The translations under genes and the position numbers were made by a program. This document shows, one piece after another, positions 34,442 through 54,349 of a stretch of 64,000 nt of DNA. Numbering within the stretch: the stretch's first letter is position 1; each line of letters begins with the position of its first letter. The stretch lies in the NCBI GenBank assembly GCA_018696395.1, contig JABHQR010000013.1, positions 1,802-65,801 of the forward strand. Reading direction: 5' to 3'. The stretch is from an archaeon (lineage in GTDB: Archaea > Nanobdellota > Nanobdellia > Woesearchaeales > GW2011-AR9). The notes under the pieces were generated by a model, which worked only from the letters and a program-made list of their open reading frames with translations, was not told the DNA's origin and did no database searches.

Positions 34442-34491
34442 TTATTTCTTTTTTCTTTTTATTAAATATTTTTAATTGAGAACAAATAAAA

Positions 34492-34992
34492 ATGGATAAA
34501 ATCCCCAAGATATTACTTTGTACAATTAGCCCATTAATAGTTGGAACCGTAGCATACTTTTATCACAATAGCAAGCTAGAAAAAGAATTTGAAAAAGGTT
34601 ATCAAGATGGTTTTAATAGTGGTTATGAGCAAGGTAAAAATGAGGAACCAACACAAAATGAGTGTAATAATTTATATGATCAGCAATTAGAACAATTTTT
34701 AGAAAATTGTAAAGACATACCATTTCAAGACAAATTCAATAATCAATTTACTAATCCAAATGAGTTAGATTTATCGTTAATATGTTCTAAAGATGCAGGA
34801 TTCAAATCATTAGTTTATCAATTTGTTAATGGTGACCAAGGTATGATTTACAGTAGAATAAATTTCTTAGGAGAAAGAGAATACCAGATTGAGAAAGGAA
34901 ACTTATCTCAACTAATTGAAGATCATGAATATAATAGTTTTGGAATAAAACCAATATTAGTGATAAGCAATTATGAAAATAATGAACCTTAA
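34492..34992 (+). CDS. Small N-terminally membrane-anchored protein (paralog B)
   Basis: 166 aa. N-terminal TM, then GYQDGFNSGYEQG ... ECNNLYDQQLEQF, colinear with paralog A. Confidence 0.5.
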   Translation: MDKIPKILLCTISPLIVGTVAYFYHNSKLEKEFEKGYQDGFNSGYEQGKNEEPTQNECNNLYDQQLEQFLENCKDIPFQDKFNNQFTNPNELDLSLICSKDAGFKSLVYQFVNGDQGMIYSRINFLGEREYQIEKGNLSQLIEDHEYNSFGIKPILVISNYENNEP

Positions 34993-35088
34993 CTTGTTTT
35001 TGTAGTTTACTTTACCACTACACCAGTTTAAATCAAAAAGTACATTATAAAATTTTGTGGAAGGATATAAAATAAAAAAACAGAATTA

Positions 35089-36468
35089 ATGGAGGACATT
35101 AAAAAAATGGAAGAAGGAGAAGGAATATTGCCAGGAAATGAACCAGGCGCACAAAGTACAAATTATCAAAGTCAAAGTTTAGAACAAACTATTGATCAAA
35201 AAGAGATTTATAATGCAGATGAAGAACTAGACAGATTAGATGAAGAATTACATAAAAAAGGAATCAGTTATGAACGTATTGGAGCTGAACAAAGAGATAG
35301 GGCAAGTGCAACAACTCAACAAGAATATAATCAACCCATTGTTCAAAACCAAGAAGATCTTAATAAAAATGTTCTAAATACTATTTACAATAAAGCTGCC
35401 GAAGAATTAGATGATAAGCAGAAAGAACAACATGAACAATCAATTAAATTTAGACAATTTTTATACACTGCGTTAAGTTATGTTGGAGTAGATATGTATC
35501 AAAAAGATATTGAGAAAAAAGCAGATTTTGCAAAAGAACTTACTGATACACAACTAACTGTTATTAATGAGATAGAAACAAGATACTTTGGAAGAAAAAG
35601 AACAGGAGTCACAGAAAAAGAAGCAGAACGTATGAGGCAAATTGAAAAAAGATACAAAGCAAATGACACATTAGGCCTTAGTCAATTAAAGTCAGCAGGA
35701 GTTGACCCAGAAGGAGGTATTGAAGGTAAAATTAAATATTTAGGAAGAGATATAGAAAAAATAGATCTAAACATAGATACCCAAGAAGGAATTATCTCCC
35801 AATTAGATACAATGATTTCTTCAAATGAAACCACATACCAAAAAATTGTACAAAATGTACAAAATGTTGAAAGTTTAATTGGAACAGAACAAGATGAAAC
35901 TAAAATAAATGAATATCAAAATAAAAAAGGAGAATTTGAACTTAGAGCAATAGTTCTAAATAAAGAAATTGACAACCAAAAAAGAGATAGGGAAGACCTT
36001 AAAGATAGACTTGACGAATTATATGACAAACTAGAAGATAAAGAAAACTTTTTAGAAGATTTAGAAGATGAAAGGTTAGAACTGAAAGAAGTTTGGATGG
36101 ATGAGAAGAGTAACTACCAAGATGTTAGAAGAGCTTACAATTTTCTTCAAAGAAATATTGACAAAATGAATCGTTTCTCTAAAAATAAAGAAATTTTGAA
36201 CATTGCTGATTTGATTAATGAAACTGAAAGTTTCTATAAATTAGGAGAGCTCTTAGGTGAATATCAAAGTTCAAGTAGAACCCTTAATTCAGGAGTAGGA
36301 CGAGATAATAGAGATAGAAATGAAAAAAATAGAAAAACAAGAAGACAGAATACCGAAACACGAATTAAAGAAAAAGAAAAATCTTTAGAGATGGGTCGAA
36401 GAGAGAAAAGATTAAAAAGAAGAAGAAGAAGAAGAAGTGGAAGTGACTTCTTACAACCAACAACATAA
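35089..36468 (+). CDS. Coiled-coil protein with an Arg-rich C-terminal tail
   Basis: 459 aa. Long heptad-like E/K/Q/L-rich segments. The C-terminus is RREKRLKRRRRRRSGSDF. Confidence 0.5.
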   Translation: MEDIKKMEEGEGILPGNEPGAQSTNYQSQSLEQTIDQKEIYNADEELDRLDEELHKKGISYERIGAEQRDRASATTQQEYNQPIVQNQEDLNKNVLNTIYNKAAEELDDKQKEQHEQSIKFRQFLYTALSYVGVDMYQKDIEKKADFAKELTDTQLTVINEIETRYFGRKRTGVTEKEAERMRQIEKRYKANDTLGLSQLKSAGVDPEGGIEGKIKYLGRDIEKIDLNIDTQEGIISQLDTMISSNETTYQKIVQNVQNVESLIGTEQDETKINEYQNKKGEFELRAIVLNKEIDNQKRDREDLKDRLDELYDKLEDKENFLEDLEDERLELKEVWMDEKSNYQDVRRAYNFLQRNIDKMNRFSKNKEILNIADLINETESFYKLGELLGEYQSSSRTLNSGVGRDNRDRNEKNRKTRRQNTETRIKEKEKSLEMGRREKRLKRRRRRRSGSDFLQPTT

Positions 36469-36512
36469 TTTTTATTTTTTTATTTTAAATTAACTAAAAA
36501 AGGTATTTACAA

Positions 36513-38129
36513 ATGGGATTAGAACAAGTTGTTGGCAAGGAAGAGATTTTAAATAATTTCGCTAGAAATAAAAATCAGTTTGAACAGCTCTTGCAATCAA
36601 TAGGGTTAAGAATTGAACATAGCACTAAAAGAGAAACTGTAAGGCCCCTTATTGAAGAATACTGTAAATTGATGATTGGAACATATTATTCTGTTGAAAA
36701 AAAAATTAAGGAGAATGACTTAGTTGGAAATGTACTGGGAAGAGAAGAAATTAATTCTATTTATTCAATGTATATTGCATCAAAATTAATTGATATTAAT
36801 TTAAACAAACGATTAGGTCAGAACGGAAAAAAACAACATATGATTAGTAGGTCATCAAATAAAAGAAGATTAATTAGAACTGGACACCAAGATGAGTATA
36901 GTAATTTTGATTTAGCATTGTCTTCTTTATTTGAACAAGTTAATAGGTCCAGAACCCCAAATTTAAGAGATGTGAGAGAATTTAACAAAGAATATCAAAA
37001 ACAAGCAGCAATATGTTTAAGAAATTTAACAAATGAAGATCAATTTAATTCATTAAGTGACATTAAATGGAATATTGCAGGATACAATGTCACAGGTGTA
37101 GAGATACCAAAAGAAGTGAGTTTAGTTCAAAGTAATTCTGTCAAAAAAGCTCAACATAAAGAAACAGAGATGTTTGAAACTCCTTTAGAATACATGCACA
37201 TAGATAAGAAAAAAGTCATGGCAAAAGAAAAAATAATAGGAGATCAGAAAGTTATTGATGAATTAGAAAAAAGTGTAAGACAATTAATGACTTATAATAT
37301 AAATCACCAGACTAATTTATTCAAAGATTTGGGGATATTTAATAACAAACATTTACTTCAAGGGCTTCCTGGGACTGGAAAAACTAGAGTAGCTTTTTAT
37401 TTGATAGATTATGCTGAAAAACTAAATGCAAGGTATGGAGGCAATTTAATGGTTTCAGCATTAAATATCAACTCTTCTTGGAAAGATGGAGACATACAAA
37501 AATTACAAAGCCAGTTTAATCAGATATGTTCTGAAAATAAAACTTTCTTTATATTTGAAGATGAAATTGATGCACTTTTGAAAGAAGGTCCACAAGATAA
37601 AGAAGATCGAGGACAGGTTAGAATAAAGAAAGAGTTCAATAAATTCCTAGAAGGAGCTTATCCAGATAGAGGAAATTACTTATTTTTAACAACATTAAAC
37701 AGATTAGAAAACTTGACAAGAGATAATAGAGAAAGATTTGATTGTCATAATTGGAGAGGGGCAGTAACTTCTGAAGAGAAAGCGCTTTTAATTAAATATA
37801 AATTAGAAGAAGGCTATTCTGGAAATATTAATATTTCACAAAAAGATTTAGGATTGTTAGGTGATTTAGCTTATAGGTCTGATTTAGGGGGAAGAGATAT
37901 AGCTAAAATATGTGTTGGAATAAAACAAGAGTCATTTAATGATTCAGAAGAAATATTTGACATGTTAAAGAAAAATGAATCTTCAATCGAATCTCAAAGA
38001 AAAATTATCACATCAAACTTGCAAGAAGTTAATTACAATTCATTAAAATCTAAATTTGAAGCATATCTAGAAAATAGAGAAAATATTCTACAAGATTCTA
38101 CCCAATATTCTGGAGGAAATAATGGTTAA
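36513..38129 (+). CDS. AAA+ ATPase (classical clade) with a unique ~280 aa N-terminal domain
   Basis: 538 aa. Walker A GLPGTGKT, Walker B FFIFEDEIDAL, sensor-1-like LFLTTLN, Arg-finger-like RDNRERFD. Confidence 0.75.
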   Translation: MGLEQVVGKEEILNNFARNKNQFEQLLQSIGLRIEHSTKRETVRPLIEEYCKLMIGTYYSVEKKIKENDLVGNVLGREEINSIYSMYIASKLIDINLNKRLGQNGKKQHMISRSSNKRRLIRTGHQDEYSNFDLALSSLFEQVNRSRTPNLRDVREFNKEYQKQAAICLRNLTNEDQFNSLSDIKWNIAGYNVTGVEIPKEVSLVQSNSVKKAQHKETEMFETPLEYMHIDKKKVMAKEKIIGDQKVIDELEKSVRQLMTYNINHQTNLFKDLGIFNNKHLLQGLPGTGKTRVAFYLIDYAEKLNARYGGNLMVSALNINSSWKDGDIQKLQSQFNQICSENKTFFIFEDEIDALLKEGPQDKEDRGQVRIKKEFNKFLEGAYPDRGNYLFLTTLNRLENLTRDNRERFDCHNWRGAVTSEEKALLIKYKLEEGYSGNINISQKDLGLLGDLAYRSDLGGRDIAKICVGIKQESFNDSEEIFDMLKKNESSIESQRKIITSNLQEVNYNSLKSKFEAYLENRENILQDSTQYSGGNNG

Positions 38130-39624
38130 GAATATTTTTGGAGAAGAAGATTCTCAATTTAGATCTGAAGGAACAAGGAAATTATTTAGGACATATCACA
38201 GGTATTTTTTAGATGAAGATAAACAGAGAGATAAAAGTCCTAACAGTAGCAATAGTAATAGTAGTTATAATAATGACAATAATGATGATAATGTAGAATT
38301 TATTGAAAAAAATCAAGAGAATGATCAAAAGAATAATGAACAAAATGGTCTTGAAGATAATTTATCAATTGAAACAACAGTAAGAAAAAAGAGAAAAAAA
38401 TTTATTAGGCCACAAGCGTTGGAGATTGAAGTTGAACAAACCAATGAATTACATACACCAACTGAATTTGAAGAAGTACCAACAGGAACATATCAATTTG
38501 GCGAGAATATTTTTAATGAGATATTAGATTATTACAAAGCTAACATTATTGGTGGAATTAAAAGTACCCCTATCCTAGAGGAAGATAGTAACTGTTTATT
38601 ATCCACTATATGTGCTTCTTCAAGAAATTCTTTTATTGTAGAAGGAGAATCTAGGACTGGAAAATCTTTGATTGTGGATAAATTAACACCCCTTTTAACA
38701 TCAGTATATTATTTAAGAAATTGTTCAAATAAATCAATGTTTGGTAATTCTGAACAGATTAATAAAAATGATTTTCTTTACATAACAGAATTTCAATCAG
38801 CAATTGAAGGAAACCCAGCTGTAAAAGAAGCATTGAAATTAATTACAGAAGATAAAGATGCTAGTAATGATGGGTATGGGGAAAGAGTTACATTAAATGG
38901 GGATATTACAGTAATGAGTACTGGTGCGGATGAAAATATTAAAACTCAAAGAAGAGATGTTGAACTTTCTGGCAGATTCATCATTCTAAAAACCAGGGCT
39001 GACGCAGAAAAAATTAAAGCAATATGTGATTATCAAGATGGTTTATTAGATGGAAGTATTGAAGGTGTTAACTTCAGTAAAGATAGATTAAGAAAACTTA
39101 AAAAACATATTGTAGATACCATCAATTTAAAAGATGTAAATTTTGAAAATCCTTTTGTAAGTTCTTATTCACAACATTTACCTAACACTAAAAAATCGGT
39201 TTATTATAGGACATTATATTATTCATTAGTTAATGCATTTACCAAGATAGATAGACATAATAGGGTTTGGAAAGGAGAAGATAAGTTAATCACTAATATC
39301 CAAGATATTTATATCACACACCAACTATATCATCAAAATTATTGTAATATTCTAAAAAACTTGTCATTGCAATCATATTCATCAATGGAAAAAAGTCTTA
39401 CTACTTTGGAAAAAGATGTTAAAAAACAAGAGATGGAAAATGAGATTAAACTTATTGACAATTTAATTTCAAAACCAGTTGATTGGGAACAAGTATGGGA
39501 TTCAGGTTATAAAATTATGAAAGAAAGGAACTTTGATTTGGCAGAACAATGGAAAATAAACCAAAGCCTAGGAGATAGTGTATTAGTTTACGACCCCATA
39601 ATAAAACAACAGATAGGAATTTAG
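38122..39624 (+). CDS. P-loop NTPase of unknown family
   Basis: 500 aa. Walker A GESRTGKS, candidate Walker B FLYITEF, and a low-complexity N-terminus (SNSNSS, NNDNNDDN). The start overlaps the upstream AAA+ gene by 8 nt. Confidence 0.55.
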   Translation: MVKNIFGEEDSQFRSEGTRKLFRTYHRYFLDEDKQRDKSPNSSNSNSSYNNDNNDDNVEFIEKNQENDQKNNEQNGLEDNLSIETTVRKKRKKFIRPQALEIEVEQTNELHTPTEFEEVPTGTYQFGENIFNEILDYYKANIIGGIKSTPILEEDSNCLLSTICASSRNSFIVEGESRTGKSLIVDKLTPLLTSVYYLRNCSNKSMFGNSEQINKNDFLYITEFQSAIEGNPAVKEALKLITEDKDASNDGYGERVTLNGDITVMSTGADENIKTQRRDVELSGRFIILKTRADAEKIKAICDYQDGLLDGSIEGVNFSKDRLRKLKKHIVDTINLKDVNFENPFVSSYSQHLPNTKKSVYYRTLYYSLVNAFTKIDRHNRVWKGEDKLITNIQDIYITHQLYHQNYCNILKNLSLQSYSSMEKSLTTLEKDVKKQEMENEIKLIDNLISKPVDWEQVWDSGYKIMKERNFDLAEQWKINQSLGDSVLVYDPIIKQQIGI

Positions 39625-39655
39625 ATCAAGTAATCATTGAATTTATCAAAAATGA

Positions 39656-41377
39656 TTGGAGGCAAGAAAAATGAGATATAAAAATACTTACGATGAACTT
39701 ATGTCAATCTATTCAGATAGATTAGATGATAATATCAGGTTCGTATTAGAACCAGGTATGTTTAAAACATCAAATCAAATTGAAACAATTACTGAGCAAT
39801 TATATTCACAAAAAGATAATGTTGAAAAATTAAGAAAAAAGGATTATAATCAATTGTCTATTGATGAGCTAATCAAAGTTAGTATTCAAATGGTATCATT
39901 AGAAGACACTTGCCAAAATCTTCAACAACAACACAGGTCTATACCAGAAAGAGATAATTATGAACTTCTTGCCACTAAAATTTTAGACATAAGCCAAAGA
40001 ATTGATGATGGTTTCATTAACATAGCAAACGAATTAAAAGATGATTTTGAAGTTAGATATAGTTCACTAAAAAATTTGAGGCCAGGAGATATTGAACAGG
40101 CTGGAGAATTAAGGTCAGAATTAAATCACCTAATCTCAAAAGTAGATTACTTTGAAGAGATATTTGACCAAAGAAAAATTGATCAATCAGTGATGAATGA
40201 AATTAAAAGTAATTTTAATAATTATATGCAAGAAAGTAAGGAGATTAATTCAATTACACAAAATTTTAATAATATTGTTGAAACTTATCAATCATTATCA
40301 ACATCCCACGAGATTAGAAAATTCATTAGATCAAATTTAAGAAATTTTGAAAATAGAATTATTAAAGGAAAATTACTCAAAGATTGTGAATCTGCAAATT
40401 ATCATGAAATGATTCCTAAAATTGAATTTTTAAAAGAAGAGTTTAATTCTATGTTAGAAAATTCTGAAGATTCAATTAATCTTAGAAATGAAATGAGATC
40501 ATACTTGGAAGGATTAGAAACAATTTCAGATTATGTTGATAGTATGGGCAGTGAAGATAAAATTGTTAAAACTAAAGATAAAGTTATATTAAATAGAATT
40601 ATCAATAATATCAACCCAGATAGATTTTCTCAAGAAAAAGGATCAATTTATTTAGATTCTTTAGTTTCTCAAGTTAGTTCCACAGCTTCAGAAATAATGA
40701 ACAAAGTAAAACAATTATATCAACAAGATTTTGATTTTGAGATTTCCAGATATAATTTAGGAATTAAAGGGAGATTATTGGAAAAAATAACTCTCTCGGA
40801 TTCAGAAGAAAATATTTGTTCCATGATAGATAATTATAATCTACTTAATCAGGAAGTAACTTTGTTCTTAAACAATCAATATAATGGTAAAATTGAACAA
40901 GTTAAATATTTACAAAAATGTCAAGATAAAATTAAAAATCATTTGGCAAAAACTTCAGAATTAAGTAATGATAATTTAAAAATTAAATTTGAAAGTCTAA
41001 ACAGTTTAATTGAAATTTATTCTAAAAGAGCATTTTTTGACATCACTGGTAATCAAACAAGGGATTATGAGACATCTAACACCCCATCAAATGGAAATAA
41101 AAATAATGGTATAGAAAACAACAATAGTACTAATATTAATTCCAAAAATGAATTAATTAGTTTTGCTTACCAAGCGCACCAAGATTGTCAATCTGAAGAA
41201 TTGAAACAAATTTGTGCAGACATAAGTTGTATTGACAGGAATGGATATCTTAAACCGTTATACAAGCGAGCTGGAAAGATTAAAGATCAATTGTCTGAGA
41301 TTAAAATTGAAGATTTACAAGATTATGAAAGATTGACTTACCGATCAATTGAAACTGCAATGGGCAGTTTGTTTTGA
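39656..41377 (+). CDS. Large coiled-coil protein (hypothetical)
   Basis: 573 aa, predominantly helical with heptad-like repeats. Confidence 0.5.
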   Translation: MEARKMRYKNTYDELMSIYSDRLDDNIRFVLEPGMFKTSNQIETITEQLYSQKDNVEKLRKKDYNQLSIDELIKVSIQMVSLEDTCQNLQQQHRSIPERDNYELLATKILDISQRIDDGFINIANELKDDFEVRYSSLKNLRPGDIEQAGELRSELNHLISKVDYFEEIFDQRKIDQSVMNEIKSNFNNYMQESKEINSITQNFNNIVETYQSLSTSHEIRKFIRSNLRNFENRIIKGKLLKDCESANYHEMIPKIEFLKEEFNSMLENSEDSINLRNEMRSYLEGLETISDYVDSMGSEDKIVKTKDKVILNRIINNINPDRFSQEKGSIYLDSLVSQVSSTASEIMNKVKQLYQQDFDFEISRYNLGIKGRLLEKITLSDSEENICSMIDNYNLLNQEVTLFLNNQYNGKIEQVKYLQKCQDKIKNHLAKTSELSNDNLKIKFESLNSLIEIYSKRAFFDITGNQTRDYETSNTPSNGNKNNGIENNNSTNINSKNELISFAYQAHQDCQSEELKQICADISCIDRNGYLKPLYKRAGKIKDQLSEIKIEDLQDYERLTYRSIETAMGSLF

Positions 41378-41392
41378 AATAATTATTTTTTA

Positions 41393-42769
41393 TTATTCTA
41401 TTGTAAAATTTAAAGTATTTGACCTTCCGATTACCTCCCCAGAAAATCTGTTATAACATTGAACTGCCATTTCAAATTCTGAAATATCTATGCCTGACAA
41501 TAAATCAAAAATTAAAACATGATCAAAAGGATTAAAATATTGTATTTTATTTGAATTTAGTGTTAAACTTTCAATTGAATTAACATAAGATGCAACAACA
41601 TCACAATTACCATTAGAATAACCAGAATTATTAATTAAATGACAAAAATTTTTGTGTCCAGAATGAATTATTGGATCAATAGAGTTATCAAGACAAGATA
41701 ATTCAAAATTTTCATTATGTTTTTTTCTTTCAAATTCAAATTTGTACCAAGTACTGGTTCCTGAATCTTCAAGAATAGCATTTGAATTTGAGTTAATTAA
41801 TAAACTCAAATTAGAATCAATTAAAATAGGGGATTCCCTCCCAACACTAGTTACAGATTCCCCTCTTTCTTCTGCTTCAGCCATCCTTTGTTGACTTGTT
41901 TGAGAATGTGAAAAATGAGGCAAAGTTAATGCACCATTATTTTCAAAACTGCCCATGGTTCCATTTTGATATTCCCCACCATAATTATGTTCTCTTAAAC
42001 TTTCTTGAAGTTCAGTTAAACTAGTCATAAGAGGATTGTCAATAGGTAAACTTATATCTTGAGAACCTTGCTCCAAGTTATGTAAATAAATTTCATCAGA
42101 ATTTTCATTAGCATTAGTTAAAAAACCAAGTAATTCTTCAGGACTAACTCTTTCCACTAAAGGAGTTACATCTTGTTCAATATTATTTTGATTAGCATCA
42201 TTTAAACTAGGTGTTGTTGAAACTCTTCTAGAATGTGGTTTTTTATCAGCATAACTAAATTCTTGTTCAGAAAAACCTAATTCTTCAACTTGAGAAACTG
42301 GATAGTTAACAAAATAATGACTATAATTATCGCCAGACTTAATTTCAGTAATTGAACCATGTAAAGATGACATAACAACCCAACCTGAACCATATGAATT
42401 GTTATCAGAACTACAAAATAGATTAAAATTCAAGTTATAATTTTCGCCTAACGTAGCGTTAAGTCTTGTTATATCTAATTTATTTCCTGGTAAAGAAAGA
42501 TTATCTAAAGATACAACATTACCATCTTTTACTACAACATATTTCAAATTACATCGCTGCCAATTAGTTAACATGTTAACAGGACCTAACCAACAGAAAT
42601 CACCATCATCTAAAGGCACATTTTTATTACACGCAATTTTACCATCAAAATAATAAAATGATTGTGTTCTTTTTTGTTCTTTTTGTTTTTCAAGTTCAGA
42701 AAGTTTTGATCCTTCTTCGTTTGCCTTATTTATATCTTCTTCACCCATTATACTTACTACAAGTTCCAA
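41393..42769 (-). CDS. Hypothetical protein (first gene of the convergent minus-strand array)
   Basis: 458 aa with no recognisable catalytic motif. Confidence 0.5.
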   Translation of the reverse strand: MELVVSIMGEEDINKANEEGSKLSELEKQKEQKRTQSFYYFDGKIACNKNVPLDDGDFCWLGPVNMLTNWQRCNLKYVVVKDGNVVSLDNLSLPGNKLDITRLNATLGENYNLNFNLFCSSDNNSYGSGWVVMSSLHGSITEIKSGDNYSHYFVNYPVSQVEELGFSEQEFSYADKKPHSRRVSTTPSLNDANQNNIEQDVTPLVERVSPEELLGFLTNANENSDEIYLHNLEQGSQDISLPIDNPLMTSLTELQESLREHNYGGEYQNGTMGSFENNGALTLPHFSHSQTSQQRMAEAEERGESVTSVGRESPILIDSNLSLLINSNSNAILEDSGTSTWYKFEFERKKHNENFELSCLDNSIDPIIHSGHKNFCHLINNSGYSNGNCDVVASYVNSIESLTLNSNKIQYFNPFDHVLIFDLLSGIDISEFEMAVQCYNRFSGEVIGRSNTLNFTIE

Positions 42770-42798
42770 AGATTGTTCATTTGCTAGACTAATCTCTT

Positions 42799-44802
42799 CT
42801 ACTTCTGGCCTATAGACTTTTTTTTTATCCCCGAAGAAGGGGAAGAGGTTTGTAATCCACCACGTCTTGGAATTGATTCAGAATTCTCTTTTGGAGGACA
42901 ACAATAAGTATGTTCTTCACAAACTTGAAGATTATTTTGTTCAATAAGTTCAGGAGTAGTATAATTATTTAAGTTTTTACAAAATCCCCCTTTTCTAGAT
43001 TTATCCTGACGACATTCATATTCGGACCAATTAGTTGGTGGCACAAAATCATCTTTAACATACTCACTACCACAAACAGATATTTTTGAAATCTCAACTG
43101 TTATTGGGATTGTACCTGAAGAATGTCTTTCTTTATAGTCACCATAATATTCCTGAATATCAGAAGACACATCAGAAATAAAAGGAGATATGTAATTTTT
43201 AATGGTATGTTTACCAATAGCATAAATTCCAATTGCTCCAGCTCCCACCATTAAAAATCCTAAAACACCTAAACTGGCATAAGCTGCTTCTCTTTTAAAA
43301 CCATTTAGACTAAACCCACTTTTGTTTACTAAAGGTTTAGTAACTATTTGTTCTTGTTTTTCAATTATCAAATTAATATTTGGTTTTACTAAAGGATCAT
43401 AAGTTTTCTTAGCATTGATATTAAAAGCCAATCCAAAACTATCTAACAAGACACTATCAGAATCATAATTATTATCAGTAATCAAATCAGATTTTTTATC
43501 AACATCAGAATAATATAATCCTAATGGCCCTAATATATCTTCAAAATCTGTTTCATTTAAGATTGATTTATATTCAGATTTTTTTTCGGAGGAATGCACA
43601 TATTCTACCATATCAATCCTTAAATTGAATTCTTCTTCAATTTTTGTTAATCTATCAGTAATATTTTTTGAATTTTTAAATCTTGATTTTCGATTAATAG
43701 CTGTACCTTCAAAAATTAAATCAACTAAGTTTCCTATTAATGAATCATAATCTTTAACATCTTTAGATTCTCCCTTAAATCTATCGTATGCTTGTTCAGT
43801 AATATCAACTTTTATAGATTTTAATTTAGTTTCTAAATTATCCTTTTTTTCTTTTTCAACTTCATCATTAAAGGAACGACTATTCGCAAAATTCCTGTCA
43901 TTTTCTGAGATATTATGATTATTATAAAAATGTTCAACTAGTCTACCTGTAAACATTAAGCAGACTAAATTTGCAGTACAATATGTGTCAATTTCTGGTA
44001 AAGCTTGACCATACTGTTTTAAGTCAGGGGGCGAATAAATTGAATTTGCAATTATATCATCTTTAGCATAATATTTGTTCTTGATATTTTCAGCAGATGC
44101 TTTATTAAATAGCTCTTTTACAGATTTATTTTTCTGCCTAGAGATTCCAAAATCATTAACAATACATCTTCTCTGCCCTATTTTCCCTACTAGAAGCATA
44201 TTACCAGGATTTAAATCAAAATGAATAATACCATCACCACCCATATTGTGATATATTTCTAATTGCTCAGATATATCATAAGAAATGTTAACAATTTCTT
44301 TTAATGATAATGGGGCGATATTATTAGAATGTACCTCGTGAGCAAATATTTCTTTATCTTCATTTTCAAAATTAGGAATTTTTACACCTAATAAAGATTC
44401 TAAAGTAGATAAAGTTTCAAATTTAGTTCTAAGATTATTAAAAAATAAACAAGTTGATTCATTAATTTGATAAGCACCCAAATATTCTCTTCCCTTAATT
44501 GCCCAATTATCATAAATTTCAGGAAATTTTTGTTTATTAAATGAAATAAATGTTTCAACGATATTTTCATTATGAATTATTTGAGATGAATCTGAGATTG
44601 GACATAGATCAGGATCATTAGTTGTTGTTTTTAAGAAACTATTAGCTTCATTACGATCTTCAGGAGGATTTCCTCCTAAATGGGCAGTAAATCTCATGGA
44701 GATAGACCCTTTATGAGCTGAGTCAGATAAAGGATTCCAAATTCTAACTTTATCTTTCTTGGAATCTTCAGTTACATAGTCTTTGTATTGTTTTTTTGTC
44801 AT
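42799..44802 (-). CDS. Membrane-spanning eukaryotic-like Ser/Thr protein kinase-domain protein with a C-terminal Cys-rich ectodomain (receptor-like)
   Basis: 667 aa. Catalytic loop IIHFDLNPGNMLL (HxDLxPxN) followed 13 residues later by NDFGIS (DFG). A single TM helix (AAYASLGVLGFLMVGAGAIGIYAIG), then a C-terminal ~150 aa region with about 8 Cys. Confidence 0.7.
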   Translation of the reverse strand: MTKKQYKDYVTEDSKKDKVRIWNPLSDSAHKGSISMRFTAHLGGNPPEDRNEANSFLKTTTNDPDLCPISDSSQIIHNENIVETFISFNKQKFPEIYDNWAIKGREYLGAYQINESTCLFFNNLRTKFETLSTLESLLGVKIPNFENEDKEIFAHEVHSNNIAPLSLKEIVNISYDISEQLEIYHNMGGDGIIHFDLNPGNMLLVGKIGQRRCIVNDFGISRQKNKSVKELFNKASAENIKNKYYAKDDIIANSIYSPPDLKQYGQALPEIDTYCTANLVCLMFTGRLVEHFYNNHNISENDRNFANSRSFNDEVEKEKKDNLETKLKSIKVDITEQAYDRFKGESKDVKDYDSLIGNLVDLIFEGTAINRKSRFKNSKNITDRLTKIEEEFNLRIDMVEYVHSSEKKSEYKSILNETDFEDILGPLGLYYSDVDKKSDLITDNNYDSDSVLLDSFGLAFNINAKKTYDPLVKPNINLIIEKQEQIVTKPLVNKSGFSLNGFKREAAYASLGVLGFLMVGAGAIGIYAIGKHTIKNYISPFISDVSSDIQEYYGDYKERHSSGTIPITVEISKISVCGSEYVKDDFVPPTNWSEYECRQDKSRKGGFCKNLNNYTTPELIEQNNLQVCEEHTYCCPPKENSESIPRRGGLQTSSPSSGIKKKSIGQK

Positions 44803-44831
44803 TCTAATTTTTATGACCTCATATTTTTCAT

Positions 44832-46097
44832 CTATTCACTTTGAGTTTTTGGACAACAAGCATGAAATGGCTTTTTGCTGGAATACACTTCATTTATTTT
44901 TTCTTGAGTTTCAAAACCAGCGATAGTTACATCCATTAATTCACACCCCAATATGCTGGGTTCATATAAATGAATCCATTCCTCAGTAAAATAACCTTTA
45001 TAACTAAGGCAACCATTATGGGTAACATCACTTAATTCTGCAACCCTACATTCATAATCTGCAACTTCAGGAATTTTACTAAACCCACACAATACTGTTT
45101 GAGGATTATTTGATGTGTCAAATACAACAGGTAGCCCATGAGGATTATCATCTTCTGAAGAATATTTCACATCTTCAACAAGCCCATTATTTTGTAATTC
45201 AGTTACTGGAATGGTATTAATTACCGCTTGGTTTGTTGAATTATCATGTTCTATTCTAACTTCAAGTAGTTCTGAATTAATTTTTGGAGTATTACATTTC
45301 GCTTTAATATACAGGTGATTAAGTTGGTTAATGACTTCTTCACCTTGAACAAGATTTAATTGATTAATAACATCATTTAAATTTATTATTACCGAATCAT
45401 TTTGAAAAATATAATTTGACATTTGAGTCATTTCACTTACTAAATTTAATTTTGCCCAAACAATACATCCACTTTTAGTAGGTTGATCATAATCAAACAG
45501 TTTAATTGTACAAGTTTCGTCTTCATCACTACTAAAAATAATACTACCAGGACAATTTTCGAATTTAAAGTAAGGTTCTTTTACATTTTCAATGGGATTA
45601 TTTTCTGGTTCACTTAAACGTTTGATTGTTTCATCAACATTGTAAGTTTGAGAGTTATCTTCTGGAGATAAATATTCATTTTGATTTAGATAATGTACCA
45701 CCCCAATTGAAGTTAAAATTAATCCAGAAAAAATAAAGCCGAGATTACGTTGTCTTTTCAATTTTTTAAATTTAGTGATTACTGCATCACGAACTTCAAT
45801 AGAAGTTAAATCAGCATTTAACTTAAGATTATCTTGGAGTGTAATAAGATGGGAATTATTCTGTTGAATTAATTCTTCAACACTTACTTTTAATTTCTCA
45901 ATACCTTCTTCAGTATAATCAATGTTAATGTTTTCTTCTTTACCATAAAGTGCTTCAGAAATTGGTTGAATTATTTTTTCTAAAGTTTTATTTTTAGATT
46001 GAAAATCACTAGTGATTTCACTTAATCTGTCAAGAGTACTACGTAATTCTTTACAATAGTTTACTAATTCCGATGACTTAATTGTTTTTTTTGACAT
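44832..46097 (-). CDS. Type II-like membrane protein: N-terminal coiled-coil, one TM, Cys-containing C-terminal domain
   Basis: 421 aa. TM LGFIFSGLILTSIGVVHYL. Its first ~30 codons and upstream region are duplicated at 46345-46440. Confidence 0.55.
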   Translation of the reverse strand: MSKKTIKSSELVNYCKELRSTLDRLSEITSDFQSKNKTLEKIIQPISEALYGKEENINIDYTEEGIEKLKVSVEELIQQNNSHLITLQDNLKLNADLTSIEVRDAVITKFKKLKRQRNLGFIFSGLILTSIGVVHYLNQNEYLSPEDNSQTYNVDETIKRLSEPENNPIENVKEPYFKFENCPGSIIFSSDEDETCTIKLFDYDQPTKSGCIVWAKLNLVSEMTQMSNYIFQNDSVIINLNDVINQLNLVQGEEVINQLNHLYIKAKCNTPKINSELLEVRIEHDNSTNQAVINTIPVTELQNNGLVEDVKYSSEDDNPHGLPVVFDTSNNPQTVLCGFSKIPEVADYECRVAELSDVTHNGCLSYKGYFTEEWIHLYEPSILGCELMDVTIAGFETQEKINEVYSSKKPFHACCPKTQSE

Positions 46098-46107
46098 TTT
46101 ATTTTTT
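46013..46107. repeat. Direct repeat copy A (~95 nt, ~97% identical to 46345-46440), covering the 5' coding end and upstream region of 44832-46097
   Basis: tgatttcacttaatctgtcaagagtactacgtaattctttacaatagtttactaattccgatgacttaattgttttttttgacattttatttttt. Confidence 0.75.
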
Positions 46108-46429
46108 AAATTGTTAAACTTAAACTAAAACCATATTCAAAATTAGATGAATTTGCTAATTTTCTTTTACTATCTGAATCTTCAATAATCAATAAATCAT
46201 CTAATTCATAAAATTTATTTTTAGGTTCATAGATTTCTAATTGGGCATGTAATCTTTTATTTTCAATTATAATTAAATTATAATTAACTTCTAAAATATT
46301 ATAATTAACTTCAAGTTCTTCTGATTTTCTTTTATATCCCTCTGTGATTTCACTTAATTCGTCAAGAGTACTACGTAATTCTTTACAATAGTTTACTAAT
46401 TCCGATGACTTAATTGTTTTTTTTGACAT
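46106..46429 (-). CDS. Small protein sharing an identical N-terminal 25-30 aa with 44832-46097 (truncated or diverged paralog, possibly a pseudogene remnant)
   Basis: 107 aa. MSKKTIKSSELVNYCKELRSTLD(E/R)LSEIT is identical to the larger neighbour. The rest is unrelated and repetitive (LEVNYN twice). Confidence 0.4.
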   Translation of the reverse strand: MSKKTIKSSELVNYCKELRSTLDELSEITEGYKRKSEELEVNYNILEVNYNLIIIENKRLHAQLEIYEPKNKFYELDDLLIIEDSDSKRKLANSSNFEYGFSLSLTI

Positions 46430-46440
46430 TTTATTATTTT
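46345..46440. repeat. Direct repeat copy B, covering the 5' coding end and upstream region of 46106-46429
   Basis: tgatttcacttaattcgtcaagagtactacgtaattctttacaatagtttactaattccgatgacttaattgttttttttgacattttattatttt. It differs from copy A by a 2 nt swap and a 1 nt indel. Confidence 0.75.
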
Positions 46441-46442
46441 AA

Positions 46443-48626
46443 TTAGGATTTAAATTTTTTTAAAAGTTTAGATCCATCAAATTCATTGTATGAATCATAA
46501 AATAGCTTATCTGCTGGTAGCTCAATATCTTCAATTTGGTTATCAGTATCTTGTTCACTTTCAAAGCCAGGTTCTTCAGCAGAGGTCATATCTTCTGATG
46601 TTTGAGTAACCATTACTTCGTTGACAACATCATGATCAAATTTTGGTACAGATTCTAAATTATGTTCTAACTCAGAATTGATACTCTCAGGCTGATGTGC
46701 ACCATTATCATTATCTTTAACCTGTAATCCTTGATGTAAAGTTTCAATTACTATTTTTTTTGTGTTAAGTTCTTCTTTTAATTTTTCAAGTTCGTCTGTT
46801 TGGTTAAAAAAATCCTTTTGAAGAGTGATATAATTTCCTTGATGAGTACTTAATTCTTGACCCTGTGTTTCAAAAGAGACTTCCAACTGACTATATTTAT
46901 TTGTTTCAATTCTTAATGATTCTTTTACACCAGATAATTCATCTGTATGATATTCAAAAAATTGTTTGAAATTAGATAAAGAAATATCTCTTAAATTCCT
47001 CAACCTTTTAAGTTTATTTTTTAATTCTTTCTCACTTATCACTAATTTTTTTATTTCATCTTTAAATTTATCTTGATTATCTTCAAGAATATCAACAAGA
47101 TAACCTAACTTCCCAGCTTCATCATAAAAACAGATTAAATTTTGATCTAATTTTCCTAGTTCCAGTTCTTGCCTGCCTAATTCTGATTGAGAATGAAAAT
47201 AATTAATTTTCCAAAATATTTTTTCTCCTTGATTTTGTTCAGATTCTAATTTTAAATCGTTTATTCTAATTAAGTTACTTTCAAATAATTTTGAATTATA
47301 TTTTAAAACAGACTGGTTAAGATTTAAAGCAGTATTAATACGAGATACTTTTAATTTTGTTTCTTCAGATCCATCATAAAAATAGATTAAATTTTGAAAA
47401 GTTTCATTAAGTAATTCATTCTGATTGAAACATTTTCTTTTGAGAGACTTAACTCGAGATTCTAATTTAATCTTTTTTTTTTCAACCTTTTTATAATCTC
47501 CAAAAAATATTTTAAATGCATTATTTAAAATATCAAAAACGGTACATTTAGCTTGATAATTTGATTTTAAATCATCATAATCTTTACTTACCTGATCTAG
47601 TCTCCCCCCAGCATTAACTAATTCACCTTCAACATTTGATAGTTTGGATTCTAATTCCATTACCCTTTGATTAGAGTTAGCCATCTTACCTACTTGATCT
47701 TCTAAATCTACATACACTAAAGCAGTATCATCAAATTTCAAACTGTAAAAATTCTGAGAATCGTTCACAAAATCAACTAATTTAGAAATTTTATTTTCAC
47801 AATAAGCTTTAATTACCAGTTCAATATAATTTTCAATATTTTCATCTGTCATAGGGCCACTTTGACCAAGATCATACCTATTAAATACAAACTCGTTTAA
47901 TTTATCTACACCCAAACTTCTTAATCGATCTCTAGGATTTTCTACTTTATCTATCAAAACATTAATTTTTTGATCAGGGGTATAGCTCTTATCAATGATT
48001 ACTTTTTCAATAACTTTCCCAGGAACCCTATCAAGCCCATCAGTGTAAAGGAATAAAGCAGAAACATTTTCTAAAGAAATTTCTTTGTAATTTATCCTAT
48101 CTTCAATACTTCCCCTAACTCTCCCACCATTATCAAGTTCATTGTTAATTAAATCTGCTCCAACAACATTTGGAGGTGGAGGATTAGTTCCCACACCATG
48201 TTCACGAGCAATAATTTCAGGAGAATATTTTCCTGATTTAAGCACCCCTATTGCACTATCCCCAATATTAACAAGATACGCAGTATTTTCATTTTTATTT
48301 ACTAAAGCCAAAGATAATGTTGATTCTGAAATATTGTTTAAAAGTAATTTATTAGCCTCGATAACATTTTCCCTTAATAAATTTTCATAATCTTCAATTT
48401 CAGTGTATTGTAATATATTTTTGATGTTTCGGTGTAATTGAGATACTAATAAATTACTTGCCTCATTTCCTCTACGATCATTTCTCCCATCAGCTACAAT
48501 ATACAAACCAAATAGATTAGTAATTTCACTATTTTTTACTTCAAATTCTAAGTTCAACAAACTGTCATCATTCATTAAACGATATTGTCCGGAAATATTT
48601 TTTGCATATGATCTCATTTTACACAC
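46443..48626 (-). CDS. PP2C-like Ser/Thr phosphatase domain fused to a long C-terminal coiled-coil
   Basis: 727 aa. PP2C-like motifs LYIVADGRNDRRGNEAS (motif 1, with the conserved glycines substituted), NIGDSAIGVL (GDS motif) and LFLYTDGLDRV. A ~450 aa coiled-coil follows. The C-terminal module is paralogous to 57002-58240. Confidence 0.6.
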   Translation of the reverse strand: MCKMRSYAKNISGQYRLMNDDSLLNLEFEVKNSEITNLFGLYIVADGRNDRRGNEASNLLVSQLHRNIKNILQYTEIEDYENLLRENVIEANKLLLNNISESTLSLALVNKNENTAYLVNIGDSAIGVLKSGKYSPEIIAREHGVGTNPPPPNVVGADLINNELDNGGRVRGSIEDRINYKEISLENVSALFLYTDGLDRVPGKVIEKVIIDKSYTPDQKINVLIDKVENPRDRLRSLGVDKLNEFVFNRYDLGQSGPMTDENIENYIELVIKAYCENKISKLVDFVNDSQNFYSLKFDDTALVYVDLEDQVGKMANSNQRVMELESKLSNVEGELVNAGGRLDQVSKDYDDLKSNYQAKCTVFDILNNAFKIFFGDYKKVEKKKIKLESRVKSLKRKCFNQNELLNETFQNLIYFYDGSEETKLKVSRINTALNLNQSVLKYNSKLFESNLIRINDLKLESEQNQGEKIFWKINYFHSQSELGRQELELGKLDQNLICFYDEAGKLGYLVDILEDNQDKFKDEIKKLVISEKELKNKLKRLRNLRDISLSNFKQFFEYHTDELSGVKESLRIETNKYSQLEVSFETQGQELSTHQGNYITLQKDFFNQTDELEKLKEELNTKKIVIETLHQGLQVKDNDNGAHQPESINSELEHNLESVPKFDHDVVNEVMVTQTSEDMTSAEEPGFESEQDTDNQIEDIELPADKLFYDSYNEFDGSKLLKKFKS

Positions 48627-50203
48627 CTAAAAGACACATCATAAGAGCCAATTCTGTGATTAGCTGGAAAAATAAATTGGACATGTTTTGAATTATTTTC
48701 TTTTAATAAACTAGCTTGATAATCATTAAAATAATCAACATAATTGTCTGGAATTTTATTAAGATCTAAACTTAAAATTTGACCTTTATCAACCATTCGC
48801 TCATTTAAAAGAAATTTTGCTTCTTCAGTTATGGCCCTACCTCTTCGATTGATTCCTTTCTTAGCATTATTGAAAAAATCGTACAGGTCCCCTTGAGAAG
48901 CTATTGAATTGGTTGTATAAGCTTTTTGAAATAGGTCAGTAAAATTAATATTGATATAAAAATTACGATAAGTAAAATGTAACACATTCTTAGTAGTTTT
49001 AAAATTTTTAATTGAGCTCTCACGATAACTGGATTTGTTGAAAGGAAAGTCGTCCAAATCATTCAATGTAACTCCCAAATAATCTTTCATAGAAATTAAC
49101 TGAATTTTTTTATGAAATTCTAAATTAATTGAATTTTCATTTTGATTAATTTTATAACATTTCAGAATACCTTTACTTAAACCAAGGATAGCATAATAAT
49201 CATCATAATGTTTAACTAATTTAACCGAACCGATATCTGAAGAAGGAACCAATAATTCATCATTGTTAAAAAAAGGAGAGATCATTTTTCCCTCATTGTT
49301 TTTTTCACCAGGGCCATGATAATATTTTCTAACTTCATTACCTTCCCCCTCTTTACCTATGTATATCCCTAAATTATTATCTGTATACAAGATTAAATCT
49401 CCCAAAACATCTAAATTTAAAATTTTACGATTTTGTTTACCGTTAGATATTCTTTTAACCTCATTAATTTCATTAGTTAAAGGATCAAAATCTAAAATTC
49501 TTAATATGTTTTGATTTGGAACATAAAGATTCAATTTTTTGATATTTGGATTTTTAAAATCTACAACATTTCTAGCAATTACTGGCCCAGATATTTCAAT
49601 AGGTCCATTATGATCTTTCAATAAAACTAATTTTTCTAAATCACCACTAGGACAATTAAACAAATAACCACAAGGTAATTTTACTTGGTCATCTTCAGAA
49701 GAGACAATCCTTCTAGGCAAGTATGCCCCTAGAATAAAATGGTGCTTTATTGAATTATGATTATTTTGTTCTTTTTCATAGGTTAAGTAATCTGAAGTGG
49801 AAAAGGAAACATTATCTTCACCTAAAATAGACCTCATACCTTTTAGACTATCGCTACCATCAATAAAATAATTTTGAGCTTCAATAAAACTTTTTTGTTC
49901 ATCATTAAAATCAAACCTAAAGAATCCCCTCCTACTAAAAGAATAAATTGAATTCCTTGAAATAATTAATTCCCTTGGGGAAGGTAATTCAATTTCCCGA
50001 CCTTCACTATCTAGATATTTTAAAGGTAAAAATATTGGACTAATTTCATTGAAATTAGATTCCCTACTAATTATTTGTAACCCAACACCTTCACGTTTCT
50101 TAACTGTAGAACCTACTTTTTTAGTTGATGCAACGAATGCGATATAATCTTCCAATCCATTACTAAATTCAAATCCCTTCTTCTTAAATTCTTGTTTCGC
50201 CAT
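48614..50203 (-). CDS. Hypothetical protein
   Basis: 529 aa. Overlaps the upstream PP2C-like gene by 13 nt (operon-like). Confidence 0.5.
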   Translation of the reverse strand: MAKQEFKKKGFEFSNGLEDYIAFVASTKKVGSTVKKREGVGLQIISRESNFNEISPIFLPLKYLDSEGREIELPSPRELIISRNSIYSFSRRGFFRFDFNDEQKSFIEAQNYFIDGSDSLKGMRSILGEDNVSFSTSDYLTYEKEQNNHNSIKHHFILGAYLPRRIVSSEDDQVKLPCGYLFNCPSGDLEKLVLLKDHNGPIEISGPVIARNVVDFKNPNIKKLNLYVPNQNILRILDFDPLTNEINEVKRISNGKQNRKILNLDVLGDLILYTDNNLGIYIGKEGEGNEVRKYYHGPGEKNNEGKMISPFFNNDELLVPSSDIGSVKLVKHYDDYYAILGLSKGILKCYKINQNENSINLEFHKKIQLISMKDYLGVTLNDLDDFPFNKSSYRESSIKNFKTTKNVLHFTYRNFYININFTDLFQKAYTTNSIASQGDLYDFFNNAKKGINRRGRAITEEAKFLLNERMVDKGQILSLDLNKIPDNYVDYFNDYQASLLKENNSKHVQFIFPANHRIGSYDVSFRCVK

Positions 50204-50233
50204 TTTTTAAGTTTTTAAATTGTAATCATTTTT

Positions 50234-51676
50234 TTAACTTATCAAATTATTTAAAAAATTAATTAATATATTCTCTTTACCTAGATATTCTTCTTTCAAC
50301 CTAATAATATCTTGGTATCCTTTTTTGATACCATAATCTAATAAAAATTGAGAAGATTGGTCCAATTCTTTACCTTCTTTTTTGTTAGAAAATTCAAATC
50401 TTAAATATCTTTCAACATCACCATGTTCATATAACATATTAAGGAAATTTTCTTGATTTAAATCAGAATTTTTAAACTTAAATCCCTTTTCTTTATTTTT
50501 AGTTCCAACAAAATAAGATTGATATAACTTCATACTGTGGTTATAATAATTAGAATTGGTCTCAGTATTTTCTAAAAGTAATCTTCCCAGATATAATTTA
50601 GTATCATGATCTAAATGTAATTCATTAAAATGAGGAGATGCAAGTGATTTACTTTGAAAATCAAAAAGATAATCACATAGATTCAATTTATCTGAATCGT
50701 TGATATCCTCTGTGTTTAAAAAATAACCATTTAAAAATTGTCTAATCGTTTCAAATGTAAATTTCAAATCTTGTGTCATCTTAATTTTTTGTTTTAAATT
50801 ATTTTTCTTAGACGGCAGATCTTTGATTATAGAAAGATATGAACTAACCATTAATTTTATGGCATCAATACTTTCAGAAGAGCTATCAATATTCCAATTT
50901 ACTGGTTTGTTAACAAGAGTAGTTAATTTTTTTGAATCTAAATTCACCCAACTAAGTGAACTTTTCTCTTTACCTTCAACAATATACTTTGCCAAAAGTA
51001 AGTAAGCACCATAATCTAAGTTCGTACCATATTTGAAATTATTATCTTCCTGTAAAGCAACCAATTTAATGATTGAACCTTCTTTCTTCAACTCGTTTTT
51101 CTTCCCAACATACTTGTGGTATAATGACCTTGCTAACACTATGTTTTGAAGTTGATGATATTTAGAATTAAATTCAAATGGTTCTTTTTTTGAAGCTTTA
51201 TTAATTAATTTTATTGCACCATCAAAATCCCCTTGTTCTAAGAAAGATTTAGCATAATCTAAATCAACCAGGTTGTCATCTGAAACATCAAATTCATCAG
51301 GTGAGTAATTAGTTCTTTCTTCAAGATTAAGTAAATCAATTTGACATACTACAAAATTAAGTTTTTTAAGATGTGAGTTCGCAGAATTGACCATATTACT
51401 ATCATCACTATGTTTAGAAACTAATTCAAACAATTTTAATGATTTTTCAATATCATCGTTAGCAGAAGAATACCTGCCTTTGTCAAAATCTTTTTTAAAT
51501 CTATTAACACGAAGAACTCCCTCTTTAAATGCAAATTCAAAATCATCTGGAAAAAAATGACCTAGATCACAAGAATTAAGATATTGTTCACACAGATTAA
51601 TACATTTCTCCAAGTCATCAGAGTATAGTTCTAATTCCTTACTACACATATTTCGCTTTTGTTTTTGGCAATCCAT
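50234..51676 (-). CDS. Hypothetical protein (helical, possibly TPR-like)
   Basis: 480 aa ORF. Confidence 0.45.
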   Translation of the reverse strand: MDCQKQKRNMCSKELELYSDDLEKCINLCEQYLNSCDLGHFFPDDFEFAFKEGVLRVNRFKKDFDKGRYSSANDDIEKSLKLFELVSKHSDDSNMVNSANSHLKKLNFVVCQIDLLNLEERTNYSPDEFDVSDDNLVDLDYAKSFLEQGDFDGAIKLINKASKKEPFEFNSKYHQLQNIVLARSLYHKYVGKKNELKKEGSIIKLVALQEDNNFKYGTNLDYGAYLLLAKYIVEGKEKSSLSWVNLDSKKLTTLVNKPVNWNIDSSSESIDAIKLMVSSYLSIIKDLPSKKNNLKQKIKMTQDLKFTFETIRQFLNGYFLNTEDINDSDKLNLCDYLFDFQSKSLASPHFNELHLDHDTKLYLGRLLLENTETNSNYYNHSMKLYQSYFVGTKNKEKGFKFKNSDLNQENFLNMLYEHGDVERYLRFEFSNKKEGKELDQSSQFLLDYGIKKGYQDIIRLKEEYLGKENILINFLNNLIS

Positions 51677-51703
51677 TTTAAATTAAATTTGTTTAAGGTA
51701 AAA

Positions 51704-53398: not shown

Positions 53399-53399
53399 T

Positions 53400-54332: not shown

Positions 54333-54349
54333 ATTTTTTATTTTATTTT

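Follow-up and report, generated by a model that had tools for sequence, protein, structure and literature searches.

The gene at positions 42799-44802 on the minus strand of the 64,000-nucleotide stretch of archaeal DNA analysed here (contig JABHQR010000013.1; the whole stretch is called "the window" below) encodes a receptor-like kinase of 667 amino acids (aa). Its open reading frame (ORF) starts with ATG, matches the Pfam family Pkinase and has a homologue, P0001, which is 45% identical to the product of the gene across 96% of the protein. We consider it quite probable that this protein is a type-I-like receptor Ser/Thr kinase of the Hanks or eukaryotic-type protein kinase (ePK) class, with its N-terminus inside and its C-terminus outside the cell, and that its family is a rare, lineage-specific one among Woesearchaeota-like DPANN archaea. 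The chain is predicted to consist of a cytoplasmic kinase domain, a single transmembrane (TM) helix and an extracellular module containing six cysteines.

The kinase domain (residues 17-392, positions 43627-44754) was delineated from an alignment of the family, an AlphaFold2 model, Foldseek comparisons and profile matches to the Protein Data Bank (PDB). The Pkinase profile (PF00069) gives the protein 34.7 bits, above the gathering score of 31.7 (E=1.6e-8). The aligned profile positions, 92-234, cover the C-lobe only; the N-lobe is missed by Pfam and is revealed by aligning the family. The atypical-kinase profiles ABC1 (15.9 against 22.9) and Bud32 (19.7 against 125) remain below their cutoffs, RIO and APH give no profile match at E≤1, and a choline-kinase match was likewise not found, in agreement with the original prediction, made from the letters of the window and its ORFs, that the kinase is of the eukaryotic type. 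The family profile, when compared with the PDB, is closest to the bacterial kinases Stk1, StkP and PknB (E~3e-13). The AlphaFold2 model of residues 15-392, calculated with the family alignment, has a predicted local distance difference test score (pLDDT) of 88.5 and a predicted template-modelling score (pTM) of 0.91. Foldseek finds 1314 matches to it in the PDB at E≤1e-3; the 50 that are listed consist entirely of protein kinases and pseudokinase domains, and their target template-modelling scores (TM-scores) are mostly between 0.55 and 0.70. Judged by its sequence and modelled fold, the domain is genuinely Hanks-type and represents a divergent subfamily.

The catalytic motifs can be assigned to individual residues. 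The catalytic loop HFDLNPGN (H194-N201, positions 44200-44223) is spanned by IIHFDLNPGNMLL, residues 192-204 of the kinase, and the DFG motif (D217-G219, within NDFGIS) occupies positions 44146-44154. D196 and D217 are 21 residues apart, confirming the earlier observation of an HxDLxPxN loop and a DFG motif at normal spacing. D196, N201, D217 and the αF aspartate D272 are invariant in the family (30/30), while H194 (27/30), G219 (26/30) and the αH-I arginine R374 (27/30) are conserved in most members. The αC glutamate is E79 (positions 44566-44568), which is Glu in 26 of the 30 relatives and is part of a family motif NE, and the APE-like motif is PPD at residues 258-260. It had been asked whether the glycine-rich loop and the "VAIK" lysine are intact. 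The β3 lysine K58 (positions 44629-44631), situated within SFLK and corresponding to the family motif [FY]F.K, is intact and is Lys in 29/30 relatives, whereas the glycine-rich loop, HKGSISMRF (residues 30-38, positions 44689-44715), is reduced to H-K-G-S-I-S. In this loop, for which the family pattern is G.G[ST][LF]S.R[YF], G32 is kept in 29/30 sequences, position 30 is His here and Gly in 18/30, and the position of the third glycine is occupied by S35, a Ser in 21/30. The catalytic loop is of the non-RD type, with F195 in place of Arg, and the absence of the HRD arginine is a trait of the family. The catalytic-loop Lys, which contacts the γ-phosphate in canonical Ser/Thr kinases, is replaced at position 198 by Asn in the window protein and by Ser or Thr in 22 of the 30 relatives. 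The kinase domain is probably active.

A word-indexed search of 5.8 billion proteins retrieved one homologue (P0001) with the full protein and five with the family profile. Only exhaustive searching with HMMER, applied to 1.84 billion representatives, brought the family to light; it retrieved 59 proteins at E≤1e-3, with 29 at E≤1e-10. About 30 of the HMMER relatives form a coherent family, in which an N-terminal kinase domain of ~320-400 aa is in most cases followed by a hydrophobic helix and a C-terminal part that varies between members. The peptide DTYN..N.LCLMLTG, searched for as a degenerate DNA pattern, was present in 0 viral contigs and in only 2 metagenome contigs; patterns derived from the N-terminal part of the profile, which were poor, detected no related locus among genome contigs.

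The single TM helix comprises residues 506-530 (positions 43213-43287). This helix, AAYASLGVLGFLMVGAGAIGIYAIG, has a Kyte-Doolittle 19-mer maximum of 2.11 and is the sole such segment in the protein, no other segment exceeding 1.5. The N-terminus of the kinase is hydrophilic and no signal peptide was found there. Throughout the family, the 15 residues flanking the helix contain four to eight Lys and Arg residues on the N-terminal side and zero to three on the C-terminal side. Cysteines make up 1.0% of the residues ahead of the helix and 4.3% of those beyond it; in relatives that have long C-terminal regions the corresponding values are ~1% and 2-6%. The positively charged inner flank in the family, the lack of a signal peptide and the distribution of the cysteines thus place the kinase inside and the tail outside the cell. 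This predicted N-in/C-out topology, together with the presence of only one helix, upholds the earlier description of a cytoplasmic kinase with a single TM segment and an outer C-terminus. The tail itself had been overestimated: 137 aa, not ~150, follow the helix, and they contain six cysteines (577, 597, 608, 628, 634 and 635) instead of about eight.

These six cysteines define the extracellular module (C577-P636, positions 42895-43074), which was recognized with a hidden Markov model (HMM), an alignment and an AlphaFold2 model having a pLDDT of 80.6. The module is ~65 aa long, with six nearly invariant cysteines arranged in the pattern CG-x8-F-x2-P-x2-W-x2-Y-x-C ... C ... Y ... C ... CCP. When 12 instances, none of them from the window, were combined into an HMM, this matched the tail of the kinase with E=1.1e-18. 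The module is C-terminal in the kinases P0003 and P0012, directly precedes the distal ectodomain in P0001, and is internal, in one to three copies, in the long ectodomains of P0005, P0007 and P0021. It is also found at the C-terminus of non-kinase proteins composed of a coiled coil, a TM helix and an ectodomain (P0041, P0043, P0055 and P0059), and in two copies in P0031, which has no clear TM segment. The module has no match in Pfam, in the PDB by sequence or by fold, or among viral folds, and its alignment gave 0 matches in the word-indexed homologue search; by these comparisons it appears to be a previously undescribed domain. Cys constitutes 1.11% of the 19,079 residues in the 53 window ORFs of at least 100 aa, consistent with the claim that cysteines are otherwise rare in this proteome, and the six in 60 aa of the tail are the second densest cluster in the window (binomial P=5.6e-5 per 60-aa stretch, uncorrected). 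A chance clustering is better excluded by the conservation of the module, as found with the independent HMM. The module would be a disulfide-stabilized binding domain. The densest Cys cluster is found elsewhere, in a 107-aa ORF (window 62236-62559, plus strand) that has 10 Cys within 60 residues and no Pfam match at E≤0.01. The window also encodes three large predicted surface proteins (21346-23316, 25575-26894 and 27065-30292, minus strand) with Ig-like, cadherin-like, He_PIG and PKD repeats, and the module is absent from all three.

The gene upstream of the kinase gene (44832-46097, minus strand) encodes a partner protein of 421 aa. It has a coiled-coil-like cytoplasmic N-terminus, one TM helix (residues 119-137, positions 45687-45743) and an ectodomain, with 10 Cys beyond the helix. 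The C-terminal part contains a divergent copy of the module (positions 44850-45089), in which all six Cys are kept, the first loop is shorter and ~25 residues are inserted before the final CC. The module HMM finds this copy with E=2.1e-4, the second best match among 214 window ORFs, the third having E=0.11. BLASTP between the kinase tail and the partner gave nothing significant, and an HMM is needed to see the relationship. The neighbour had been described as having a similarly placed TM helix and a Cys-containing ectodomain. The topology and the Cys-bearing ectodomain are indeed the same, whereas the position of the helix along the chain differs. The accompanying idea of a co-receptor has gained strength from the shared module and from the adjacency of the two genes, which is conserved in other genomes.

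Further upstream on the same strand are the genes of a small soluble coiled-coil protein of 107 aa (46106-46429) and of a PP2C-type phosphatase of 727 aa with a long coiled-coil tail (46443-48626). The small protein is a paralogue of the N-terminus of the partner. Their first ~30 aa are nearly identical, and the first ~99 nucleotides (nt) of the two genes are 97% identical, which suggests that the N-terminal part of the partner gene was recently duplicated or underwent gene conversion. The phosphatase matches PP2C_2 with E=4.2e-5 and 23.6 bits, below the gathering score of 24; its best NCBIfam match is the Stp1/IreP PP2C family (E=4.9e-11), also below the cutoff.

The order PP2C, small protein, partner and kinase is found in the loci L084 and L088 and in the contig encoding P0012, where the opposite side likewise comprises two or three genes for ~500-aa proteins, an AAA ATPase gene and some smaller ones. 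The last of these also has the flanking TrmB gene, and in both L088 and the P0012 contig a gene similar in size to the 107-aa ORF is at the same position. The AAA side of the locus is kept in L001 and L089, and the PP2C, partner and kinase genes are kept in L085-87. The syntenic contigs, four or five in number, span 29-46% GC and are Woesearchaeota-like or unclassified. The PP2C gene is co-operonic wherever the upstream region was recovered, namely in the window, L084, L085-87, L088 and the P0012 contig. The way the module is distributed ties kinase and partner together. In L084, the gene next upstream of a module-bearing kinase encodes a coiled-coil/TM partner that has the module as well. L085 has two partners with the module, followed by a kinase that has no ectodomain and ends right after the TM helix. 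In L088, from a metagenome-assembled genome (MAG) whose FEN1 is 61% identical to that of the window, the module is absent from both kinase and partner. The TM-ended kinase gene of L088 is followed, with a 4-nt overlap, by a gene (11632-13734) for a 700-aa protein that has its own N-terminal signal (lipobox-like, LTSGC); as read from the sequence, this arrangement is a natural split of kinase and ectodomain. L083 (ENA ERZ4200974 NODE_733) is 99.99% identical to the 10,965 nt at window positions 43838-54802 and breaks off within the kinase gene, and the divergent last ~8 residues of its product, P0002, are probably a contig-end artefact.

The arrangement of an N-terminal cytoplasmic kinase, a single TM helix, a C-terminal extracellular sensor and a PP2C gene in the operon is that of the bacterial pairs PknB/PstP, PrkC/PrpC, Stk1/Stp1 and StkP/PhpP, and the best sequence-profile matches among solved structures, given above, are kinases of these pairs. 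The family also has a C-terminal "RYQ.A.EL..DL"-type motif and a GxGxxS P-loop, both of which we take to be shared with PknB. Nevertheless, the protein is not a member of the Stk1/PknB family (NF033483; 23.6 bits against a cutoff of 450), and no PASTA or other Pfam domain was found in its ectodomain. It differs from the bacterial PknB-type kinases in its six-Cys ectodomain, the non-RD loop, the replacement of the loop Lys by Ser, Thr or Asn, the ~375-aa kinase domain with insertions, the archaeal host, the additional coiled-coil/TM partner and the conserved locus of ~17 genes. Archaeal ePKs, some of them membrane-bound, signal together with protein phosphatases (PMC5007285; PMC5300886). The Arn network of Sulfolobus is different in that it has FHA/vWA readers and a PP2A phosphatase, which were not found in this cluster. 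The archaeal Hanks-type kinases show no significant sequence relationship to the present protein beyond that of the superfamily, and the six-Cys ectodomain and DPANN host also set it apart from them. The top Foldseek matches are plant receptor-like kinases (RLKs) and animal IRAK (Pelle) kinases (BAK1, BRI1, IRAK1 and SYMRK; E~1e-8, TM-scores 0.6-0.68), with which it shares a receptor-like architecture. However, these fold scores are barely apart from those of CaMK, CLK and PknB, the identity is 11-15%, and no specific relationship is evident. A literature search found no paper on such kinases in DPANN archaea, on this subfamily, on the six-Cys module or on the locus, although the library searched was incomplete and the result is weak evidence.

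A mechanism can be proposed for the receptor, and the confidence expressed at the outset extends to it. The six-Cys module would contact an external ligand, the matching module on the upstream-encoded partner, or both, and clustering through the modules would switch the kinase on. The kinase would then phosphorylate coiled-coil cytoplasmic components of its own operon, or other targets, and the signal would be reset by the PP2C phosphatase of the operon, as it is by analogy in the bacterial Stk/Stp pairs. In the allele of the window, the shortening of an A10 tract to A9 between the module and a distal ectodomain of ~470 aa ends the protein at 667 aa. The distal ectodomain would be made only upon slippage of RNA polymerase or ribosome at the tract, or upon reversion of the tract.

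Several observations weigh against this interpretation. The TM flanks of the window kinase itself are charge-neutral, with two Lys and Arg residues on one side and two on the other. In the P-loop, His stands where the first Gly is expected, and the catalytic loop lacks its Lys (N198), so that the activity may be reduced or altered. The match of the module to the partner is modest, considering that 214 ORFs were compared and that BLASTP was insignificant. In the gene cluster, neither FHA nor any other phospho-reader domain was detected. Disulfide bonds are assumed, even though the habitats of these archaea are largely anoxic, and the cysteines could bind a metal instead. The kinase activity, the substrate, the ligand and the disulfides are all predictions from the sequence.

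The 667-aa frame ends at the zero-frame stop TAG at positions 42799-42801 (minus strand), 15 nt beyond the terminal G of a tract of nine A residues followed by G (42817-42826, minus strand). The zero frame at the tract reads GGG ATA AAA AAA AAG TCT ATA GGC CAG AAG TAG and contains the heptamer A AAA AAG. Three-frame translation shows that the -1 frame is open (41393-42877, minus strand) from 18 codons ahead of the tract to the end of the 458-codon ORF beyond it, the ORF of the distal ectodomain (41393-42769, minus strand), which is detached in this allele. P0001 is a single protein of 1114 aa, of which residues 688-1113 match the 458-aa ORF with 33% identity (E=8e-62). When one A is added to the tract, a 1136-aa ORF colinear with P0001 results. 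The junction peptide of the fused frame is SSGIKKKVYRPEVEEISLANEQ, also given as GIKKKVYRPEVEEISLANEQSLELVVSIMGEEDINK. The P0001 gene, in L001, has at the same nucleotide offset, 1977, an in-frame A10 (TCA AAA AAA AAA GAA GAG ATT AGT), and the codons GAA GAG ATT AGT (EEIS) recur in the -1 frame of the window. The window thus carries an A10-to-A9 deletion, and the reading frame probably once ran for another ~470 codons. The 458-aa ORF has no signal peptide and no TM helix; having no export signal of its own, its product could reach the outside only as a fusion.

An error of assembly in the homopolymer was considered and rejected. L082, an independent MEGAHIT contig from another sample, is 99.83% identical to the window without gaps and has the same A9 and the same stop, and six other A/T runs of at least nine, five in ORFs and one intergenic, break no frame.

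The short 667-aa form is probably functional, to judge from its relatives. It should still work as a receptor because it is built like P0003, in which the chain naturally stops directly behind the module; P0011 and P0028 end even earlier, after the TM helix. These natural short forms are compatible with the distal ectodomain being a recent pseudogene remnant, left by a one-base deletion that was fixed in the lineage, so that only the short receptor is used. This explanation is plausible, although we stop short of favouring it. It would account for the identical tract and stop in two assemblies that differ by three single-nucleotide polymorphisms in 1730 nt. One of these is a nonsense mutation: L082 position 538 (window 42560) changes codon 70 of the downstream ORF from TGG to TGA, leaving pieces of 62 aa and 384 aa, and L082 has no other substitution within that ORF. 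The lack of an RNA structure 3' of the tract that could stimulate frameshifting (minimum free energy z=-0.71) is also in its favour. On the other hand, the 458 codons are otherwise intact in the window at 28% GC, and any decay must therefore be very recent, or selection persists.

The intact downstream frame could instead reflect an expression switch, either a phase-variable A9/A10 site or recoding by transcriptional slippage or -1 frameshifting, which would yield a minor 1136-aa receptor beside the 667-aa form. We regard this as rather unlikely. A slippery sequence of the type X XXY YYZ (A AAA AAG) does lie in the zero frame inside the nine-A run, and the -1 frame is open across 18 plus 458 codons despite the low GC content. 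The position of the tract is conserved, as the in-frame A10, in a species merely 45% identical; the tract is situated exactly at a domain boundary, so that both products are sensible; and the downstream ORF lacks an export signal, unlike the separate downstream protein of L088. Runs of nine A are sites of transcriptional slippage, for example in Thermus thermophilus dnaX and in insertion sequence elements (PMC1088944), and the only established -1 programmed ribosomal frameshift (PRF) in archaea takes place at A-AAA-AAT (PMC8211752). The split between the 0 and -1 frames at an A-rich heptamer or nine-A run thus resembles that in the fucA1 gene of Saccharolobus solfataricus and in dnaX. It differs from these cases in that no flanking stem-loop is present, the split is absent in the homologue, and it is known from the sequence alone. 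The missing stimulator argues against recoding in the window as well, as does the in-frame P0001, in which the frameshift is not conserved. No length polymorphism is seen between the window and L082, two near-identical assemblies that both have A9, the A10 being found in a different species. The nonsense mutation in L082 points to relaxed selection on the downstream ORF. Moreover, Lys-rich linkers in an AT-rich genome yield A runs by codon bias, and the L001 gene has two further A9 runs. As to translation of the downstream ORF on its own, the upstream sequences in this genome contain no consistent ribosome-binding motif by which to judge it.

A still bolder extension, which we think improbable, is that the tract is a functional switch, operating through DNA phase variation, transcriptional slippage or -1 ribosomal frameshifting, by which a genome-reduced, episymbiotic archaeon displays either a short or a long surface receptor kinase. 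Together with its six-Cys partner and the PP2C phosphatase, this kinase would form the sensing head of a conserved ~17-gene, DPANN-specific apparatus that senses contact with hosts or other cells. If this were true and the switch were translational, it would be only the second case of -1 PRF in Archaea.

It is very improbable that the gene encodes a pseudokinase, a scaffold or a kinase of small molecules (APH- or choline-kinase-like) instead of a protein Ser/Thr kinase: the canonical catalytic-loop Lys is absent, the P-loop is reduced, the Pfam alignment is limited to the C-lobe and H.DL.PGN presumably resembles the catalytic loop of aminoglycoside and choline kinases, but all phosphotransfer residues are present and conserved, the activation segment, the APE-like PPD, the αF Asp and the αH-I Arg are protein-kinase-specific, the APH, RIO and choline-kinase profiles do not match while ABC1 and Bud32 are below their cutoffs, the profile is nearest to PknB-type kinases, and the operon includes the gene of a PP2C protein phosphatase.

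DPANN archaea are generally regarded as host-attached, and to our knowledge almost nothing is known of how they sense their surroundings. The receptor kinase and its cluster, the order of which is held across genomes of 28-46% GC, are a candidate pathway for sensing at the cell surface that can be put to the test. Family databases would gain a new domain with the six-Cys module, and the range of known Hanks-type kinases is extended by a non-RD subfamily whose catalytic loop has Ser, Thr or Asn where Lys is usual. Phase variation or recoding in archaeal genes might be looked for at the A9/A10 junction.

In the order of transcription, the receptor-like kinase gene comes ninth in a minus-strand operon extending over positions 41393-55954, and the ORF of the distal ectodomain is the next. 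The operon begins with genes for proteins of 534 aa (54350-55954) and 310 aa (53400-54332), followed by a second kinase-like protein of 564 aa (51704-53398), a tetratricopeptide repeat-like protein of 480 aa (50234-51676) and a 529-aa protein (48614-50203), after which come the phosphatase, small protein and partner genes. The second kinase-like protein matches Pkinase with 38.8 bits over the N-lobe only. It has an intact P-loop (GDGSVG), a β3 Lys in YALK and the loop HNDLKLDN, while ADP replaces the expected DFG, and could be either a divergent kinase or a pseudokinase. BLASTP detected no significant similarity between this protein and the receptor-like kinase. A plus-strand operon (33187-41377) converges on the kinase operon. 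It encodes three small N-terminally anchored proteins, a charged coiled-coil protein of 459 aa, an AAA ATPase (36513-38129), a P-loop protein (38122-39624) and a coiled-coil protein of 573 aa. The two operons together contain ~17 genes, almost all without Pfam families. A defence system was rejected as an explanation of the locus, PADLOC finding only generic kinase (PD-T4-6, mad6) and AAA (IetA) similarity and no system architecture. A virus or mobile element was also rejected, on account of a single weak PHROGs match to the AAA protein, the 0 viral contigs found by DNA pattern and the uniform composition.

The GC content is ~28% throughout the window, in which the scan found 0 tRNA genes and 0 Rfam elements. 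Archaeal markers are a tRNA-intron endonuclease, FEN1, aRF1/Pelota-type domains, a geranylgeranyl reductase, TrmB and a split transketolase, and the FEN1 sequence is 60-71% identical to those of Woesearchaeota and Nanoarchaeota MAGs. The catalytic (PyrB) and regulatory (PyrI) domains of aspartate carbamoyltransferase are fused in one ORF of 494 aa (12416-13900, plus strand). Near the start of the window, on the plus strand, a class-II fructose-bisphosphate aldolase gene (204-1118, E=2e-105) is followed by a gene for an RpiB-type ribose-5-phosphate isomerase (1143-1796), which has an N-terminal extension of ~75 aa and is adjoined by pentose-phosphate genes.

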